From IMG/VR virus record IMGVR_UViG_3300013936_000023, positions 1 to 64,000 of that record: DNA of 64,000 nt; one strand, given 5' to 3'. Positions 1,382 through 42,045 of the stretch are shown piece after piece. Below the pieces are notes generated by a model. The model had not been told where the DNA came from. It worked only from the letters and a program-made list of their open reading frames with translations, and ran no database searches. This DNA comes from a virus. Lineage: Duplodnaviria; Caudoviricetes. A program made the translations under genes and the position numbers. How positions within the stretch are numbered: position 1 is the first letter of the stretch; each line of letters opens with the position of its first letter.

Positions 1382-3361
1382 TCATGTTATGATTTGATAC
1401 CAGTAGTCACCAGCTTTGAGACCTGATGGCTGCGTGGGCGATAGGATTATTTGGACGCCGCCACCGCCAACATCAATCTCAACCGCGCCGGTCTGCCCAT
1501 TTACAGACGTAACAGGGTATGGAGGCGGATTGCTGGCAGAATATTGTTTTACATTGTCAACGTTACCAAGTCCTACATCGCCTTTAGCAAGCTCCACATC
1601 TCCGGTCTTGCCAGCCACACTTGTCACTGGATAAGGCGGTGGATTGCTCGCGCTATACTGCTTAACGTTGTCAACATTCGATAAACCAACGTCTCCCTTA
1701 GCCATCGTAATATTGATGGCTTTGTTGGCAGATGCATTTGCCGTGAATGTGCCCACAGCTGTGCCGTTCTTCTGGATGGTCAGCGTGGCATCATTGACCG
1801 TTGGCAACTGGCCAGCAACATAATCGGGAATTCCGCCAGCATCCTCAACAGCACCAGTCGGGTCATATGTCGCCTTGAGCATGTCGCCCGCGCCAGCGCC
1901 AGACAAGGCATCAGCCACAGCTTTCTCACTCGGCACCTTGGTCGTGCTTGTGCCAAGGGTTTGTGTCACGTCGCTGGTAGCCACAGCCCCAACATCAGAT
2001 GCACCAAGCACCACTGTTCCTGTCTTGCTGTTCACGCTAGTAACAGGTGCGCTCTCCAGCTTCTTATTAAGTTGCGTCTGGACATTGCTTGTCACGCCAT
2101 CCAGATAGCCAAGCTCTGTACTGGTTACATTGCTCACGGCTACCTTGCCATTACCATCAGATACAAGCGCACGATTTGCCGTGAGATTGTCATCGGTGAT
2201 AGTACTCGCGCCGCCAGTAATTGTATCCTGTTTAGATTGTAGCGCATTGGTCAACGTGGTCACATTGCCCTTGAGCGTCGTAATATCGCCTTGAGCTGCC
2301 TCCATATCAGAATCCAGCATAGCGATGTTGTCCTCGTTGGTATTGATTTGTTGCTTAGCCGCATCTGTGAAATCGTTGTGAGTGCGCACATAGGTCGTGC
2401 CATCTCCAACATCATCTTGCGTAAGTACAACTGCGCCAGTTTTGGTGTTGACAGATTGAACAGGGGCGACCGCAGATGCTCCAGCGGCATCAACAAATCC
2501 AGAATCGTTGTTAAGCTGGCTCGTCTTTGTTGGAACATCAGCCGTCTTAGCATACGGCTCAAGCGCGGCATCCGTAATAAAGCCCTCGTCATTATCAAGT
2601 TCACTGGTCTTAGAGGGGATGGTCGGCTTACCAGTCAAGTCATCATATGCGCCGCTGAACGAGCTTGTACCAGCCCCGATATTCGTGCGGGCTTGAGCTT
2701 TCTGCGCATCGGTTAAGCTCTGAGCCGTAGTCTTGACGGCATTGGTTGTCACAGCGCCAGTTTGACCATCCACGCTTTGAACAGGTGCGCCATCCGCCGT
2801 GATATAACCACTATCGTTAGTCAAGTCGCTGGTCGCCGTTGGAATCTTAGTCGTGCTCGGCAATGCCCCAACGTCCGATGCCGTAAGCGTGACATCTCCG
2901 GTCTTGCCATTGACACTGGTAACATCTCCTCCAACATCAATCGTCACATCGCCAGTTTGGCCATTGACGCTTGTGACAGGATATGGCGGCTCATTGCCTG
3001 TGCCATATACGCCAAGGTCAGAACTGGTTCTGTTGCCCGTCAGCGTTACATTATTGATGCTGGGCTTATTGGTCGGGTTGTTATAGTCAGCAGTTGTTGG
3101 CTTAGAGCCGCCAGAACCGCCACCAGTAATCATGAAGGCGTTCGACATATTGCCTTCAGGTACAAACACACGATATTGTTTGTTGGCCGTAGGTGCATCG
3201 CCATAGAATACAACCTTGGCCTCAACGCCATTCACAACCATCAGGGCGACATTGCTCGCAACTACACCTTTGCACGTGCTGTTGTAAATTTTCGTTGTAC
3301 TCTCTAACGCTCGGCCAATCAAAATTTGAATCGCGTCAAGAATTTCATTCCTTGCGTCCAC
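1382..3361 (-). CDS. Tail fibre-like protein with internal repeats
   Basis: 659 aa with repeated V(T/Q)SVNG(K/Q)TG(D/A)V and KTS(D/E/Q)LxNDSGF/Y motifs, a coiled coil and a duplicated 34-aa C-terminal module. Directly downstream of the tape measure gene. Confidence 0.7.
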   Translation of the reverse strand: MDARNEILDAIQILIGRALESTTKIYNSTCKGVVASNVALMVVNGVEAKVVFYGDAPTANKQYRVFVPEGNMSNAFMITGGGSGGSKPTTADYNNPTNKPSINNVTLTGNRTSSDLGVYGTGNEPPYPVTSVNGQTGDVTIDVGGDVTSVNGKTGDVTLTASDVGALPSTTKIPTATSDLTNDSGYITADGAPVQSVDGQTGAVTTNAVKTTAQSLTDAQKAQARTNIGAGTSSFSGAYDDLTGKPTIPSKTSELDNDEGFITDAALEPYAKTADVPTKTSQLNNDSGFVDAAGASAVAPVQSVNTKTGAVVLTQDDVGDGTTYVRTHNDFTDAAKQQINTNEDNIAMLDSDMEAAQGDITTLKGNVTTLTNALQSKQDTITGGASTITDDNLTANRALVSDGNGKVAVSNVTSTELGYLDGVTSNVQTQLNKKLESAPVTSVNSKTGTVVLGASDVGAVATSDVTQTLGTSTTKVPSEKAVADALSGAGAGDMLKATYDPTGAVEDAGGIPDYVAGQLPTVNDATLTIQKNGTAVGTFTANASANKAINITMAKGDVGLSNVDNVKQYSASNPPPYPVTSVAGKTGDVELAKGDVGLGNVDNVKQYSASNPPPYPVTSVNGQTGAVEIDVGGGGVQIILSPTQPSGLKAGDYWYQIIT

Positions 3362-19645: not shown

Positions 19646-21208
19646 TCACTGGTCGTCATTCTGCTGGGCAGATTCCGACTTGTCAACAGAGTCAAGCACT
19701 GGACGACCACCGGTACTGCCGCCATCCTTGCTCGTGTTGGCGTTCATCAGCAATTGCAGATTCTTTGTCCAGCCCGTGTTCTTGCTCGCCATAAGGCTGC
19801 GCTCAAACAGCACAGGGTTCATTCCCATAGCAGACGCCCACGCCGAGCTATCAAGGACGATACCCTTGTCGGCATACTTGAACATCGTGTCAATGCGTTG
19901 CTGACGCTCATAGCGATACGTCGCGCCATCAAACACAAACTGCCACTTAAACTTCTTGGTCAACTGATTGCCAAAGAACGTCATAAACTTACCGAACTGG
20001 TCATAGAGCGGACGCATCGTCTGATACGTTTCATTCTGACCAGCCTCGATCTCGGCATTGCTCATACGGTCAGAGCTATAAATGACGCGACTGACATTGC
20101 TACCAATCGCCGCCGTAGAGCTGGATTGGTTGCTATACATATCGGGATTCTTGTCCTCATACTGGAAGAACTTGTTATCAGCAGTAGGCATAGCCACAGC
20201 CTTGATAGTCGAAGTTAAACCAGCCTTAACCTTGCCCATGAACGTGCCAAGCGTCTTCGGGTCTATAGAAAATTGGTTTTTCGTCGTGCCGCTCTTGGCA
20301 TTATCAAAGAGCTGGATAGCACCAGCCAAGATGCCATATGCCGACACCATATCCTTGTTCAGTTGAAGTTGCTGAACCTCATCATCCGTGATTGCATTTT
20401 TGAGAAGTGGCGCGAGATACGGCGTAGTGTTGAAGTTACTCAGGTCAAATTTGAACGCCCAAGCACCATCATCCGGACTCGTCTGCGTCCACATTGCATA
20501 AGTACCAATACGGTCGTTGAATGGGTTAGTTGGCCGATAGCTCTCAATGGATTTTGCCTCAGCCCCAAACACGCGCTGATAGTAGCGCTTAAACGCAGGG
20601 TCATAAGCGTCAATGTCAACAGATGGTTGGAGAAAATATGACATATCGAAATCAAACAACGGGCCAACATCGCTCATGCCCGTAAGCAAGCATCTGTCCT
20701 GCGGCAACATCTGAAGCGCGAACTTCATATTGCCACGATTTCCCCACTTGGTCTTTCTAAACCACGTATAGTAAACCTCATGGGTCAACAGTTGTTCAAC
20801 AACTTTGCGGAACTCACCGCGATAGTCAAACTTGAGCAGGAAGTCATCAATGCGGCGTTTATCCGCAAGATAAGCCTCCGAGCCATAGTCAGAATCCTTG
20901 GCATTTACGCAAACAAGCTGGAGGTCAAATGCCAGCGCATTCGCATAGCTCTTGAGAGTCTTTGCGAAAAGTTGGTCAAATACCTTCATATACTCCATGT
21001 AGCCCTGAATCGTATCAGCGCTCTCACGGTAAGTCGCCAGAGCCTTTCGCACGCTTTCAGAAGTTGCCACTCGTGCATCATTGTTCAAATTCTGCAATAA
21101 GCTATTGCTCATAAACGGCGACCATACGCCATATTGTTCACCATAAGCAAGACCCGCCGCAAAATCCACAATATCTTGCACCTGAGATTTAGTTAAACTC
21201 TCTTCCAT
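19646..21208 (-). CDS. Portal protein
   Basis: 520 aa directly after terL; C-terminal GGRP motif. Confidence 0.75.
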   Translation of the reverse strand: MEESLTKSQVQDIVDFAAGLAYGEQYGVWSPFMSNSLLQNLNNDARVATSESVRKALATYRESADTIQGYMEYMKVFDQLFAKTLKSYANALAFDLQLVCVNAKDSDYGSEAYLADKRRIDDFLLKFDYRGEFRKVVEQLLTHEVYYTWFRKTKWGNRGNMKFALQMLPQDRCLLTGMSDVGPLFDFDMSYFLQPSVDIDAYDPAFKRYYQRVFGAEAKSIESYRPTNPFNDRIGTYAMWTQTSPDDGAWAFKFDLSNFNTTPYLAPLLKNAITDDEVQQLQLNKDMVSAYGILAGAIQLFDNAKSGTTKNQFSIDPKTLGTFMGKVKAGLTSTIKAVAMPTADNKFFQYEDKNPDMYSNQSSSTAAIGSNVSRVIYSSDRMSNAEIEAGQNETYQTMRPLYDQFGKFMTFFGNQLTKKFKWQFVFDGATYRYERQQRIDTMFKYADKGIVLDSSAWASAMGMNPVLFERSLMASKNTGWTKNLQLLMNANTSKDGGSTGGRPVLDSVDKSESAQQNDDQ

Positions 21209-21231
21209 CCTTCTCCTCCTTTCATAAAAGT

Positions 21232-23077
21232 TTACCAGACAAGCTCGATATCATCGAGGTCGTCGTCGTCAGTTTGTTGTTGTCTGAGCCATTCCTGCTC
21301 AATCAACGACGCAATATAATTGCCATAAGACAAGATAACGGCTCTATCCTTAGTCCCGCTTCTTGGCTCGACCAGCTTGATTTTATCGTTGCGATATTCC
21401 GGTTTTAGCTCGATACACTCTTGAATGAGCATATCAACCTCACCATACGGCGCAACATCATTCGCAATCTCCTCAGCGCTCATCGTGAAATACGAGCCAT
21501 CGTCTTCAATTTTATTCTGCCGGTCTTGCATTGACACGAGGAATTTGATATTATTAAGGTCGAGTTGCTTACGCAATGTAATCCACATCTGGCTGTTGAG
21601 GTCTTGCGTGCCAATCATCGGGATGATAATACGTTGCGGGTCATTGTCAACCACGCGGCTTCTCAAGTCGTCAAGCTTTGTTGTCGGCACAACTTGATAT
21701 ATCAGCATCTCGGAAATGCCGAGACCATGCGGATTCCAATTTGCCCCACGCTCAGGATTTTCCTTGGGCTGGGACATATAGTTGTACAAGGTCTCGCCGC
21801 CGTTGCGAAGGTCAAGTATATAGTAATCCGCGCCATAGTCATAGACCAGCGCTCTAATGCGGTCGGCAGCTCCAAGACTATCGCTCGCCTCGAATTGCTC
21901 CATATAATCAACATGACGCTCAAACCGCGTCTTTCGCCAATGCAACGACATACACATGATTTGCGTATTATCGTTCTTTTGGCTCGTCGTAGTGTTGGCA
22001 AATGCAAAGTCCGAGATAATCAATCGAACCTCATTGTCCTCACGTGGGACATTGTGCATTTCAGCCCCAAGATATAGTTGCTCAACCGTCGGCGGTCTAA
22101 AGCATTGCTCAAGGATTTGGTTTTCCTTAAACGTCTTGAGCTTAAAGAACGCGTCTTCGGCTTCGCCCACCATCTCATTCAGGTCTTCCATGCGAAAGTC
22201 CATCTCTGAATCTTGCTTGCCTTTACGATAGTCAGCCCAAGTCTTCAGACGGTTCTCAATCGCCATGAAAATATCGCCCGCGAATACATTGCTCACGGTG
22301 CGCTTATCGACAAAATGGTTGGTCACAGTCTGCTTGAACGCGCCCCAAAACCATTCAAACTTATATCGCGCAGACGTGATATAGATGCGCTGGCACTGCT
22401 CAACCCAGCGCGGATTTTCCGCATAGAGCGGATTATCAAGATATTTGGCTTGACGCGGATGCGGCATCTTCTCGAAGACGGCATCCAATATGCCCTTTTT
22501 AAGTAAGCGTACCTCTTCGTAAATCAAAAGCGTCGCACGTTCACCACGACTTGATTCCACACACGGCAAGACAACAATCGTCGAGCCATTTAGCTTGTTC
22601 TCAATCCTTGTGCCATCATCTGGCTTAGTGATGACAATGTATTCATGCTCATACATATAGAGCAGATACGGCGAGAGCTTCTTGATAATTTCATCACGTA
22701 TCTTTTTGTCGGCGAGCTTATTCGCCTGAGACACAGTTGACGAGGTGATAACAATTTCGCTATATGGATATAGGTTCATCTTGCAAATCGCACCAAGACC
22801 AGCCATGAACGACTTAGATAGACCACGAGAGCATATCGCAAAGAATACATTGGATATGCCCATGAGGTAAATCATAATCATCTGGAACGGGCGCAACTTG
22901 ATACCAAGTACCATGTCAACGTAGATGTGCCAGTTGCGGCGATACCTAATAAAGGGTCAGCCACTCAATGGCATTTTCTTCACGCTCTATGTCTTTTCTG
23001 CGTGCAGACCCTTGCTCGGTGGTAATAAGATGGTTTGCCATAAATTTTCTACGCAAGCCACCCATCTGACTCTTCAT
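21232..23077 (-). CDS. terL: Terminase large subunit, reading frame interrupted at 22942-22951
   Basis: Main ORF has LRPFQ, CSRGLSKS (Walker A), SRGERATLLIYEE (Walker B), ITSA and nuclease ISDFA/KDRAV motifs. The N-terminal 43 codons (23077-22949, ...AIEWLTLY) are separated from YRRNWHIYVDMV by TAG-G. Confidence 0.85.
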
Positions 23078-23091
23078 TCAACATCACCACC

Positions 23092-23955
23092 TTATTGTTC
23101 CTCACGCGGAATATCAGGATAATTTCTCGAACCGCCAACAAGATTCTGCAAGCACCTCATCAAACCATCCCAAGTTTTACCAAATCCGCTAAAATCCTTA
23201 TATTTCTCAAGGTCTTCACATTCAGCGGGCTTAGTATTCTCAATAGTAAACGCCATCCGCTCAATGAATTTCTCTGTCTCGCTTTGCTTATTATCTTTGA
23301 AGTCATCAAGTTTCAGCATAGACATAAGCGTTTTGATTTGGTTGAACGTGTCCTTATCACCCTCGCCTTTGAACTGCTTCAGCTCTGCGCGACAAAGGTC
23401 ACGATAACGCAACGTCATAGCCGTATCCATCTCAAGAATGTCCTTAGTGTAATCCTCAAAATATTCATCAAGCCTCTGACAATCCTCATCGTCATAATCT
23501 TTGCCCCAAACCTTATCCCATTGCTTACGTTGAGCATCCATATCTTTCTGCATCGGCTCTTCGGGCGATTGCTCAATGCCAAGGTCGACAAACTCTGAAA
23601 GCTGCATATCGCTATCAAAGATGCCACGATATTGAACGCCGCCATCCTTAAGCAACGCAAGGTAAAGCCCAAACGGCTCAGGTCTGCGCCCCTTGCCATC
23701 AAGCCCATCATATTGGGCCTTGAGCAAATTGAACTTCTCCCGCAAGAACGGCACGCCCATCTCCATACAGAGACACCACAACGCGCCCCATCTTGAATCA
23801 AGAGCCTTAGACGCGGCATAATATTTCTTGCTTACGCATTCGCGGCAATATGGCAAAAATTCGCCAGAAGCAATGGGGCTTGGATAAAATTTCACCTTAT
23901 CCTTTACCGTAGAACAGCAAGGACAATAGCGCTGTTTTGCTCTATTTAATTCCAT
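23092..23955 (-). CDS. Zn-finger protein, possible terminase small subunit
   Basis: CPCC...CREC N-terminus; immediately upstream of terL. Confidence 0.55.
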   Translation of the reverse strand: MELNRAKQRYCPCCSTVKDKVKFYPSPIASGEFLPYCRECVSKKYYAASKALDSRWGALWCLCMEMGVPFLREKFNLLKAQYDGLDGKGRRPEPFGLYLALLKDGGVQYRGIFDSDMQLSEFVDLGIEQSPEEPMQKDMDAQRKQWDKVWGKDYDDEDCQRLDEYFEDYTKDILEMDTAMTLRYRDLCRAELKQFKGEGDKDTFNQIKTLMSMLKLDDFKDNKQSETEKFIERMAFTIENTKPAECEDLEKYKDFSGFGKTWDGLMRCLQNLVGGSRNYPDIPREEQ

Positions 23956-23974
23956 ATCCCCTCAATCCTTTTAT

Positions 23975-24530
23975 TCAATATGCAAAGATAGCGAGCCAGT
24001 GCGCAACCAGCCCGCTATTTCGCCACAATATTCAGTTGTAGACCGCAGTATCACCGTTGCTACGGGACTTACGGTAGATTTAGAATCACCTCCTTCAAAC
24101 TTTGGCCTGAATCTTCCAGACAGTTGGTTGCAAGTGAGATGACCTCCTCTCTTTCGAGAAATTTCTTCCAGCCGCCATTGATTAGTAGCGGCGAGCGTTT
24201 ATCCTTTGCTCAAAGCATCTTTTTCAGTTCTCGTATCTAAGAGCTGTCGAGTCGCTAATTTGTATGCCGCCACACGACAGGTCGGCAATCATTGTTGGGT
24301 TTTGCATGAACCGCTTACACGATTCAAGGAACTCTTTGTGCTCATGGCACATGAGATAGTTAAGTGTCTCGCCCTGCGCAAGGCCGACAATTTCAGCTTG
24401 CTCCTACGGTCTTAGCTTTTCGGCTCAAGTAGGAGACACATCCATTAGGACAATCTATCCAAACTTCCTTGGGCGGGCCTGATGCCTCACAAGCGTTTCA
24501 GACACAATCACTATATGGTCGCCCAAGAAA
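23975..24530 (-). ncRNA. Large structured ncRNA candidate (ROOL-like size and context)
   Basis: About 570-nt ORF-poor gap dense in hairpins (CTCCTAC/GTAGGAG, TGAATCG/CGGTTCA, GCCGCTA/TGGCGGC, TCTC-GAAA-GAGA, ACCGT/ACGGT, ATAGCGGGC/GCTCGCTAT). Strand assumed from flanking genes. Confidence 0.55.
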
Positions 24531-24537
24531 GATTGAA

Positions 24538-25746
24538 TCAAAGGTAATAATTGCGACTCCAAGTCTTGCCTTGGTCGTCTGTGTACATTGCCATATAGGC
24601 GCTGGGTCTTGCCGAGACGCGAATTTTTTTCGCGAATGCGTCCACGCCAACAATCGAGCCAACCCGTGTCAGCAGTCTATCGCCAACGTCGGCGTAGCCA
24701 ATCGCTTTGGATTCGGGGCGATGCAGATGGCCAGCCAAAATTTCATCACAATCGACATTGTAGAGATTGCCGAAATAATCTAACGTGGTCTTGAGGTCTT
24801 TATCTTCGCCATGCTGGAACATGATGTTCGTACCACGAATTGTTTTGATGGCAACATCTTGATAATCATCAACCTTGATATCGTCAAATCCTGCGAGCCT
24901 GAGCTTTAAGAACTCAACCACAATCTTAGTCAGGTTCTCACCCTCAAACTGCGGGCGAGAGGTCAGGGCGCGAATCACGTCGTGATTTCCGCCAATTGTG
25001 ACAACATTGATTGGGCAATCCAGATGTTCAGACACAGCCACCAGCCATTCAGCCATAAACTCACCGAAACGAATCACGGTATCAACAACTGGCTCACGCA
25101 GCTTGGTCAAACTCGAATCCCTGAGAATATTCTCGAAGCAGTCGCCAAGAATCGCCACGGTCAAGTCGTCAAACGCAAGGTCATCATCTGCAATCTTGTC
25201 GAGCAAGCTCCACATTCTCGCGCACATGATATCCCAACTGTAAGCGTTGACAATCTCGCCATACATCCCCTTAATTTCAAAGGTCGAGCCAGCGTGAAAA
25301 TCTGAGATGGCCAACAACGCCGTGGTCTTTGTGGCGTAGTCAATCGGGTGATATTTAATGCTCTGCCGCTTGATTGGCTCAAGGCGATTCACAGCGGCAA
25401 TCAGTTGCTCGTGGAACATATCATTTCGAGCTTCTGCACGTTGAGCAGCATTATATTCAAGATTCGCCGTCTGGACTTTCAGCTTCTCAGCTTTGATATC
25501 GTCGAGCAACTTTCTCAACCCAGCTTCATCATCGCCAGATTCAATTTGTTCATCATCGAGATTTTTGACAAAGATGGCGAACACCTTTGCAGCACGACGA
25601 ATATACTCGTCGCTAAAGACGTCGCGATAATCCTCTCCAAGTACCTCGACCACCCATTGCTGATAGTCAATCAACTTGGCATCAAGATTCTCCGTCGCCA
25701 ATTTCGTTTTCTGTAGGTACGTCATCCTGTTCTCCATTCTTTCCAT
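24538..25746 (-). CDS. Calcineurin-like metallophosphoesterase
   Basis: SDFH, GD, GNHD, HG and GHLH motifs after an N-terminal coiled coil. Confidence 0.85.
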   Translation of the reverse strand: MERMENRMTYLQKTKLATENLDAKLIDYQQWVVEVLGEDYRDVFSDEYIRRAAKVFAIFVKNLDDEQIESGDDEAGLRKLLDDIKAEKLKVQTANLEYNAAQRAEARNDMFHEQLIAAVNRLEPIKRQSIKYHPIDYATKTTALLAISDFHAGSTFEIKGMYGEIVNAYSWDIMCARMWSLLDKIADDDLAFDDLTVAILGDCFENILRDSSLTKLREPVVDTVIRFGEFMAEWLVAVSEHLDCPINVVTIGGNHDVIRALTSRPQFEGENLTKIVVEFLKLRLAGFDDIKVDDYQDVAIKTIRGTNIMFQHGEDKDLKTTLDYFGNLYNVDCDEILAGHLHRPESKAIGYADVGDRLLTRVGSIVGVDAFAKKIRVSARPSAYMAMYTDDQGKTWSRNYYL

Positions 25747-26245
25747 TTAACTTCTTGGCAAGCAACGCTGAGAAGCCGCCTCTTGCTCGTTGAGCTTTGT
25801 GTTCATTCTCAACGGCTATAATTTCCTTTAACACGTTATTCTCTTCTTCAAGCTTCTGCATGCGCATCATACGCTCATAGTCACGCTGACTCATCACGTG
25901 ATTCTTTGCGCGTTTACGAGCCGCTTGTGTCACAGCTCGACCATTGATGTCGTTGATAAAGTCATCGGCGTTGTGCCACACAGGCACATAGCGCTCTGGT
26001 TGAAGATAGTGAACCTTGCCGCCAGTCTTAGGGTCTGTCTGCTCCTGAATGTATTCGTCAACATGGCGGCAATCAAACCAACCCAGCTCAGGCAGATAGC
26101 AATACTGCCCGTAGTACAGATTTCGCTTGATGACCTCTGTGAACACCTTCCACCATTTCTTGGCCACGCCGACATCTTTACTGTCATTCAGACGCAAAGC
26201 CTCATAGTAAAAATCTCGCTCAGTTGGTCTTGCCATTTTCATCAC
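25682..26245 (-). CDS. HU/IHF-like DNA-binding protein with C-terminal extension
   Basis: Helical N-terminus, CYLPELGWF beta-arm motif, DPKTG...PERYVPVW. Confidence 0.55.
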   Translation of the reverse strand: MMKMARPTERDFYYEALRLNDSKDVGVAKKWWKVFTEVIKRNLYYGQYCYLPELGWFDCRHVDEYIQEQTDPKTGGKVHYLQPERYVPVWHNADDFINDINGRAVTQAARKRAKNHVMSQRDYERMMRMQKLEEENNVLKEIIAVENEHKAQRARGGFSALLAKKLNGKNGEQDDVPTENEIGDGES

Positions 26246-40558: not shown

Positions 40559-40633
40559 CGGGGAGTAAGCCAATGATAGACGGCAGCATTTGGGATGCTG
40601 AGGTTGCAGGTTTGAGTCCTGCCTCTCCGACCA
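40559..40633 (+). tRNA. tRNA-Pro(TGG)
   Basis: Acceptor CGGGGAG/CTCTCCG, anticodon stem CAGCA/TGCTG with loop TTTGGGA, T-arm GCAGG-TTTGAGT-CCTGC, encoded CCA. D-arm is weak. Confidence 0.8.
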
Positions 40634-41968: not shown

Positions 41969-42045
41969 GCTATCATAGCTCAACTGGATAGAGCAGCGTT
42001 CTTATAAAGCGCAGGCCGGTTGTTCGAGTCAACCTGATAGCACCA
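41969..42045 (+). tRNA. tRNA with anticodon TAT (Ile-UAU) on an Arg-like body
   Basis: Full cloverleaf: GCTATCA/TGATAGC, GCTC-AACTGGATA-GAGC, GCGTT-CTTATAA-AGCGC, GGTTG-TTCGAGT-CAACC, ACCA. Confidence 0.85.

Follow-up and report, generated by a model that had tools for sequence, protein, structure and literature searches.

We identified a large terminase gene (terL) that is likely to be decoded by a short programmed translational bypass, or stop-hop. The gene lies on the minus strand of a 64,000-nucleotide (nt) stretch of DNA from a virus of the class Caudoviricetes (positions 1 to 64,000 of IMG/VR record IMGVR_UViG_3300013936_000023), and we refer to this whole stretch as the window. The two parts of the gene are in different reading frames and are separated by seven nucleotides, which begin with a UAG stop codon and end with a UAU codon matching the last codon before the stop. 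We observe the geometry of this site, its recurrence with covarying codons in related phages, purifying selection in the coding sequence to either side of the gap, and the absence of another terL from the genome. A hop over the stop codon is what we infer from these comparisons, with a probability of roughly 70%.

The interrupted terL gene

The window is part of a single 74,756-nt phage contig (47% G+C) with a CheckV completeness of 100%. A profile built from full-length uninterrupted TerL proteins finds one terL in this genome, and finds it as two pieces. Profile positions 1–43 match 23077–22949 (E 5.7e-9), and positions 42–613 match 22947–21235. No second terL was found when the profile was searched against the complete contig. 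The elements of the gene are as follows.

23093–23087, minus strand: Shine-Dalgarno (SD) sequence AAGGTGG, read from the sequence, 9 nt 5' of the terL start codon
22949..23077, minus strand: terL segment 1, 43 codons (MKSQMGG...EENAIEWLTLY) from ATG 23077; the last codon, TAT, is the proposed take-off codon
22942..22948, minus strand: 7-nt coding gap, comprising TAG (22948–22946), the spacer G (22945) and the proposed landing codon TAT (22944–22942)
21232..22941, minus strand: terL segment 2, 569 codons (RRNWHIYVDMVLGIKLRPFQ...) from the proposed resume codon CGC (22941–22939); stop at 21234–21232

Segment 1 is an open reading frame (ORF) with the translation MKSQMGGLRRKFMANHLITTEQGSARRKDIEREENAIEWLTLY, and it ends GAG TGG CTG ACC CTT TAT (22951–22949) TAG (22948–22946). 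On the 3' side of the spacer G the sequence continues TAT CGC CGC AAC TGG. This second frame, which is +1 relative to the 43-codon ORF, reads YRRNWHIYVDM... for 570 codons to its stop codon. A TGA upstream (GGC TGA CCC) closes this frame, and any frameshift joining the two frames of the window is therefore limited to ACC-CTT-TAT. The initial annotation of the window, made from its letters and ORFs, had described the 43-codon ORF with its ribosome binding site, the TAT-TAG-G-TAT arrangement and the layout of the frames, and it was accurate in every detail. The peptides that it gave for a hop (WLTLYRRNW) and for a slip at CUU-U (WLTLIRYRRN) are also correct.

In the proposed mechanism, ribosomes would initiate at ATG 23077, translate 43 codons, and pause with UAG in the A site while peptidyl-tRNA-Tyr occupies UAU (22951–22949) in the P site. 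Some of these ribosomes would escape the release mediated by release factor 1 (RF1); their peptidyl-tRNA would unpair instead, and the mRNA would move by 7 nt. The same anticodon would then re-pair with UAU 22944–22942, and decoding would resume at CGC. The product would be a 612-amino-acid (aa) TerL with the normal junction of the family, ...EWLTLY-RRNWHIY..., and the terminating ribosomes would release a 43-aa peptide. The junction peptide created by the hop would be ...EWLTLYRRNWHIY..., and the tryptic peptide EENAIEWLTLYR would be common to the hop and to a +1 shift at UAU/UAG. Weak, A/U-rich codon-anticodon pairs of Phe and Tyr may favour take-off. The efficiency of the hop is probably low, which would be sufficient as the terminase acts catalytically.

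An invariant junction in uninterrupted relatives

Homologous loci were gathered from IMG/VR, metagenome assemblies, metagenome-assembled genomes (MAGs), and contigs encoding look-alike 43-aa ORFs. In 101 of these loci terL is uninterrupted. Together they carry 42 distinct junction peptides and range from YonF of phage SPbeta to a relative that is 98% identical to the gene in the window. All of them conform to [W/H]-x-[T/S/A]-x-[F/Y]-R-[R/A]-N, and no variation in the length of the junction was found among them.

The annotated terL genes of Enterocloster phage PMBT24, Thomasclavelia phage TR-TP1 and SPbeta begin 34–52 codons upstream of the point at which the long ORF of the window starts to align with them, and segment 1 aligns with their N-termini. 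Their junctions are continuous (EWATFYRRNW in PMBT24, HWITFYRRNV in TR-TP1 and AWTSFYRANP in SPbeta), and the window has EWLTLY before the gap and RRNW after it. Deleting TAG-G-TAT, or equivalently TAT-TAG-G, restores the junction of the family, and in the window only the removal of exactly 7 nt does so. A +1 shift or readthrough would insert two or three residues where the length of the family never varies. In the AlphaFold model of an uninterrupted relative that is 98% identical to the window's TerL (L077; pLDDT 74.6), the junction falls inside a confidently predicted helix (residues 28–44, pLDDT ~85) that continues into the ATPase domain.

Six classes of insert at one codon boundary

About 48 loci, some of which are the same contig fetched twice, are interrupted at the identical codon boundary. 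Their inserts are listed below, each with the take-off codon, the stop codon, any spacer and the landing codon, followed by the length of the gap.

TAT TAG G TAT, 7 nt: the window
TAT TAG C TAT, 7 nt: L004/L014, L076 and L078
TAT TAG T TAT, 7 nt: L160 and L163
TAT TAG TT TAC, 8 nt: L005/L015
TTC TAG CAA TTC, 9 nt: 5 loci
TTC TAG TTC and TTT TAG TTC, 6 nt: 8 loci
TTC TGA TTC, 6 nt: 5 loci
TTC TAG TTA, 6 nt: 21 loci

We count these as six classes, taking the 7-nt variants with spacer G, C or T as one class and TTC TAG TTC and TTT TAG TTC as another. The resumed frame is +1, +2 or 0 depending on the class, such that all three frames occur. In every class the stop codon lies directly 3' of a Phe or Tyr take-off codon, and it is UAG in five classes and UGA in the sixth. 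In five classes a single tRNA reads both the take-off and the landing codon, and in the TTC-TAG-TTA class the two codons match at two of three positions. Take-off and landing codons covary, with Tyr codons paired with Tyr codons and Phe codons with Phe codons, and the spacer base of the 7-nt class varies among G, C and T.

The initial annotation had proposed to look for the same insert in related phages, and had allowed that it might be an assembly error or be confined to a defective prophage. The 7-nt insert is present in all of the relatives listed above with spacer C or T, and it recurs in independent IMG/VR, ENA and Logan assemblies from different projects, which agree on its sequence except for the spacer base. 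Together with the inserts of other lengths at the identical boundary, this pattern goes far beyond chance. In addition, a comparison of the 43-aa ORF with 5.8 billion protein clusters returned 13 clusters (260 member sequences), all of them exactly 43 aa long and ending ...WLTL[Y/F]. A pattern match to TAC TAG A TAT in one further locus (L039) was rejected as a false positive, being part of an in-frame HITRY without a stop codon.

We favour a hop because it is the sole reading that gives the invariant junction without an insertion or deletion, and because it is the sole reading that covers all six insert classes with a single mechanism. The comparative evidence thus supports the stop-hop interpretation first offered for the window.

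Selection on both sides of the gap

Segment 2 was compared between the window and three relatives of the 7-nt class (L004, L078 and L160). These pairs show 137–170 synonymous and 3–17 non-synonymous differences, and within the class pS is 0.39–0.48, pN is 0.002–0.015 and pN/pS is 0.006–0.03. Across the six classes, the 20 codons immediately after the landing codon have a pN/pS of 0.08 at a pS of 0.89. The Arg-Arg pair that follows the landing codon is encoded variously as CGC CGC, CGG CGC, CGA AGA and CGT AGG. No start codon is present between the stop codon and this conserved stretch. The 43-codon ORF is itself conserved at its start and its end. These patterns of substitution indicate that terL is alive and that both of its parts are translated.

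The body of TerL (21232–22944) has approximately 99.5% amino acid identity between L078 and the window, with a nucleotide difference of approximately 8% (the 137 synonymous changes). Such a pattern points to unusually strong purifying selection, and to near-identical proteins having circulated together for a long time in different gut samples.

Phylogeny and possible local recombination

We built a maximum-likelihood tree of 87 TerL sequences from which the codons of the trait were excluded. The interrupted genes all fall inside one starred clade of 34 rows, in which each class forms a monophyletic group. This clade also includes six uninterrupted sequences: L007, L021/L022/L045, L077, and L122, whose long branch is doubtful. 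The most economical history would be an old gain of the gap followed by its remodelling and a few losses, although repeated gains could also have produced this distribution.

Two of the relatives without the gap, L077 and L084, share 98% of their TerL protein sequence with the window. Their DNA is 85–92% identical to that of the window across yonG and terL, except in a patch of approximately 120 nt (23100–22983, the first ~30 codons of terL) where identity falls to 53–63%. This patch lies immediately 5' of the hop site, and because identity dips beside the site we suggest that the gap was lost or gained via a short recombination tract. The inserts themselves may have begun as a duplication, a repair scar or the footprint of a mobile element.

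Several relatives carry other interruptions of terL. A group I intron lies inside the terL of L013 (3738–3973; RF00028, 70.6 bits), and long interruptions are also found inside terL in L066/L067, L052–L054 and L099. In L099, which belongs to the TTC-TAG-TTA class, the terL frame is broken again approximately 60 codons after the landing codon. The terL genes of Enterocloster phages (CB473P1 and others) are annotated with an I-TevI-like intron endonuclease. The terL of the SPbeta/YonF lineage is a hot spot for mobile insertions.

Observations that weigh against a hop

A number of observations count against decoding by a hop, or limit what it could achieve. RNAalifold found no consensus RNA structure at the site, and folds of single sequences gave z-scores of -0.5 to -2.5 without a common helix. 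Rfam gave no match at 20000–26000, and the sequence close to the site contains no SD-like motif. The TTC TAG TTA class, with 21 loci the commonest, is in frame and has only a near-matched landing codon, and plain readthrough could serve it. If the window is considered by itself, its frames would also be rejoined by a +1 shift, whether at CUU-U or at UAU-UAG. Finally, essentially a single evolutionary event underlies the Phe-to-Tyr covariation.

A high hop efficiency is not expected, because the site has neither a conserved RNA structure nor an SD-like stimulator. In some relatives the W-H-I-Y codons form a small hairpin, which was considered as a stimulator and rejected, since it is absent from the window. 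If hopping occurs here, it would by analogy resemble the simple synthetic stop-hops and not the highly stimulated event in T4 gene 60.

Alternative explanations

The alternative that survives best, which we nevertheless consider unlikely, is conventional recoding of a different kind in each class, which would leave two or three additional residues at the junction of the products. The window would then depend on a +1 frameshift, produced when tRNA-Leu slips from CUU to UUU or when the A site decodes AGG out of frame at UAU-UAG-G. A -1 or +2 shift would be needed in the 8-nt class, and the classes that stay in frame (6 and 9 nt) would rely on readthrough of the stop codon. The slip at CUU would produce ...EWLTLIRYRRNW... 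(LTLIRYRRNW), and the +1 shift at UAU/UAG would produce ...EWLTLYRYRRNW... (LTLYRYRRNW). The geometry for a +1 shift is indeed present in the window, and the slip at CUU-U pointed out in the initial annotation is possible on these grounds. A -1 slip is conceivable on the U-run of L005 (ACT TTT TAT), and the TTC-TAG-TTA class is in frame with an imperfect landing match. However, three different mechanisms would be required at one homologous site, the duplicated codon for the same amino acid after the gap is left unexplained, and the junction length of the products is absent from the 101 uninterrupted relatives.

The +1 shift in the window may also be compared with that of prfB, which encodes RF2. 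In prfB a stop codon follows CUU directly and a strong SD sequence lies 3 nt upstream. The window likewise has CUU-U near a stop codon, and a +1 shift there would rejoin its frames. However, the hallmarks of prfB are missing. The sequence is ACC CTT TAT TAG, such that UAU and not a stop codon follows CUU, and the upstream sequence, GAGTGGCTGACC, contains no SD. The prfB mechanism moreover cannot serve the 6-, 8- and 9-nt classes.

A second alternative, which we regard as improbable, is a split gene, in which the large protein would be initiated on its own, at ATG 22914 or another start codon, independently of the 43-aa peptide, and the two would cooperate, or the peptide would be dispensable. 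Gene callers do divide terL in this manner, into a 43-aa ORF and a 560-aa ORF, and the second of these begins at an in-frame start codon.

22912..22914, minus strand: internal ATG taken by gene callers as the start of terL; probably not the real start, with no purine-rich SD upstream

The initial annotation had likewise raised the ATG at 22914 as a possible functional start. However, no SD precedes it, and L005 (AERV) and all 21 loci of the TTC-TAG-TTA class (VDLV) have another residue in place of its Met. The 9–10 codons between the landing codon and this ATG (RRNWHIYVD) are conserved and under purifying selection, with the low pN/pS given above for the first 20 codons, and no start codon precedes them. 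The structural model also places segment 1 and the first residues of segment 2 in one helix.

A dead gene or an artefact is the weakest explanation. A 7-nt insertion bearing a stop codon would normally inactivate a gene, and the phage would on this view be decaying or defective, or the insert would be an error of assembly or sequencing. However, independent assemblies of different projects contain the same insert, a recurrence that makes an assembly error very unlikely, and a 7-nt insertion in non-repetitive sequence is atypical of sequencing errors. The carriers of the 7-nt insert have diverged to a pS of ~0.4–0.48 with pN kept at 0.002–0.015, and the genome is complete and densely coding without another terL.

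Two further candidates were rejected. The two parts of terL in the window are in different frames, and neither reassignment of TAG nor a suppressor tRNA can join them. TAG ends 9 of 87 ORFs, and the coding density is 90% under the standard code. The only tRNA genes of the genome are tRNA-Pro(UGG) and tRNA-Ile(UAU), at 40559–40633 and 41969–42045 of the window, and no tRNA with a CUA or UCA anticodon was found in the records of four relatives. Transcriptional slippage was rejected as the site has no long homopolymer.

The tRNA-Ile(UAU) gene is common to the relatives examined, and in one of them an extra insertion brings the copy to 93 nt. The IMG/VR contig of L005, from the 8-nt class, has a tRNA-like gene (L166:1501–1573) that matches the Rfam tRNA model with 46 bits and is not called by ARAGORN. 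Its anticodon arm, ATAAT-TTATATCGA-ATTAT, would have a 9-nt loop, or else a 6-bp stem and the loop UAUAUCG without U33. This gene is probably a divergent homologue of tRNA-Ile(UAU). Its anticodon is neither CUA nor UCA, and nothing was found that links this gene to the hop site.

Identity and genome context of the gene

No Pfam terminase model scored above threshold for the gene in the window, so that its identification as terL rests on tblastn, PHROG context and the predicted fold. Megablast against GenBank phages gave no match, and tblastn against GenBank phages matched 66 records. The best intact tblastn match is the annotated terL of PMBT24 (48.6% identity), followed by the terminase of TR-TP1 (35%) and by YonF of SPbeta with the relatives of YonF (28%); all of these alignments cover 96% or more of the query. 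The AlphaFold model of L077 matches the large terminases of T4 (gp17), HK97, Sf6, D6E and P74-26 at a probability of 1.0. It also matches separate ATPase and nuclease domains, corresponding to an N-terminal ASCE ATPase with a P-loop and a C-terminal RNase-H-like nuclease. The sequence matches and the model support the assignment of the gene to the large terminase subunits of an SPbeta YonF-type lineage. The identification as terL in the initial annotation is thus borne out by tblastn, by the adjoining portal gene and by the fold of the 98%-identical relative.

22810..22833, minus strand: Walker A-type P-loop CSRGLSKS of the ATPase domain, from the translation; aligns with ASRGQGKT of SPbeta YonF and AARAIGKS of TR-TP1
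19646..21208, minus strand: portal gene, directly downstream of terL (phrog_2739, portal protein, E 5e-33)
23092..23955, minus strand: YonG-like gene, directly upstream of terL (phrog_3314; homologues in relatives have a weak match to PF27269, YonG_N)

The order yonG-like gene, terL, portal is the same in SPbeta, PMBT24 and TR-TP1, with yonG of SPbeta immediately preceding yonF. A gene on the minus strand at 24538–25746, upstream of the packaging genes, encodes a 402-aa calcineurin-like phosphoesterase (PF12850; phrog_284 'exonuclease', E 4.8e-35). The gap between this gene and the yonG-like gene (23956–24537) is free of ORFs and has no Rfam match. In the relative L099, a match to the Rfam 'drum RNA' (RF02958, 57.9 bits) lies just downstream of terL (3186–3299). 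A scan of genome contigs matched four MAG contigs and gave no clue to the host; relatives have Enterocloster bolteae and Thomasclavelia ramosa as hosts.

Comparison with known bypassing and stop-hopping

Bypassing is among the rarest forms of recoding. To our knowledge, almost no natural cases are known except in T4 gene 60 and the homologues of that gene, in the mitochondrial genome of one yeast and, as a candidate, in the terminase of phage phiHau3. We also found no report in the literature of a stop-hop in the terL clade described here.

The closest parallel is the terL of the Streptomyces phage phiHau3, which contains two 10-nt gaps; a 7-nt gap is present in the corresponding genes of StrepC.1 and an S. 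catenulae prophage (PMC10732093). Bypassing in phiHau3 was proposed by Smith et al. in 2013, and mass spectrometry showed bypass in E. coli (PMC10732093). The initial annotation had mentioned a bypassed insertion proposed in a Streptomyces phage terminase, and these cases bear it out. The likeness is considerable: both concern terL, a short frame-disrupting insert of 7–10 nt that is absent from relatives, and a highly conserved junction, and in both bypassing is the favoured explanation. For the phiHau3-like cases, frameshift products with extra residues are unlikely because the junctions are highly conserved. However, the A-site trigger in phiHau3 is the rare sense codon UUA, which is tied to the bldA tRNA and the life cycle of the host (PMC10732093), whereas here a stop codon would act as the trigger (UGA in one class and UAG in the others). 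The terL in the window belongs to an SPbeta YonF-type lineage, and the gap is at a different position in the protein. Gaps occur in only 3 of 100 Streptomyces terL genes (PMC10732093), whereas here a whole clade is affected, with ~48 loci in six classes. In addition, flanking stem-loops and an SD were predicted there and none were found here.

Synthetic stop-hops, in which matched codons flank a stop codon, work in E. coli (Weiss et al. 1987, reviewed in PMC5009743), and stimulators are not required for them at a low level (PMC5009743). In these constructs nine nucleotides specify one amino acid and the peptidyl-tRNA re-pairs a few nucleotides downstream. This geometry is exactly that of the 6–9-nt classes here, and it requires no elaborate stimulator. 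In contrast to those engineered reporters, the present site is natural, lies in an essential phage gene, and has been maintained in evolution. A 2016 review by Atkins and colleagues states of in-frame stop hopping in nature that 'no occurrences are known' (PMC5009743).

T4 gene 60 has a 50-nt bypass, and its homologues are found on the MobA mobile element (PMC5009743; bioRxiv 10.1101/2022.08.31.505936). As in gene 60, the peptidyl-tRNA would be kept in the P site, and the gene belongs to a phage genome rich in introns and homing endonucleases. The conserved EENxIEWLTL[FY] is at most a putative nascent-peptide signal here. However, the gap is 6–9 nt and not 50 nt, no take-off stem-loop was found, the gap contains no SD-like element, there is no adjacent homing endonuclease gene, and the efficiency is probably much lower.

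The bypassing elements, or byps, of Magnusiomyces capitatus mitochondria are mobile elements of 27–55 nt at 81 sites (PMC5009743). As is proposed for the inserts described here, these short insertions in coding sequences are skipped in translation with function kept. In contrast, the inserts in terL occupy one site, give gaps of 6–9 nt, and would be passed by bacterial-type translation and not by a different, mitochondrial system.

With respect to all of these systems, the candidate stop-hop in the window would be new in its trigger, a stop codon, in the terL lineage and position at which it occurs, and in the graded gap lengths found across a clade.

Implications for terL expression in gut phages

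On balance, the sequence comparisons favour the view that a whole clade of uncultured gut phages with an SPbeta/YonF-type terL maintains a natural series of 6-, 7-, 8- and 9-nt stop-hops at one codon of an essential gene, with covarying take-off and landing codons. If this is true, it would be the first natural allelic series of peptidyl-tRNA re-pairing over a stop codon in normal expression, and it would operate without the elaborate signals of gene 60. The site would also constitute a natural experiment, with six variants that differ in gap length (in all three frames), stop codon and codon pair.

The inserts also have a practical consequence. Gene callers give a 43-aa 'hypothetical' protein and an N-terminally truncated terminase for these abundant gut phages, and therefore pipelines that use terL to judge completeness or phylogeny will mis-handle them.

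There are several candidate reasons for the persistence of the gap. It may limit the synthesis of TerL, in line with the translational throttle put forward in the initial annotation, or it may be neutral and tolerated since little terminase is needed. It may shield a conserved DNA target from homing endonucleases, or reduce exposure to defences that sense the terminase. The idea of protection from endonucleases has some context, because the terL genes of relatives carry group I introns and intron endonucleases, and because the gap of gene 60 travels with a mobile element (bioRxiv 10.1101/2022.08.31.505936). If the gap is functional, it would represent a new layer of late-gene control in phages, or of the arms race between mobile elements.

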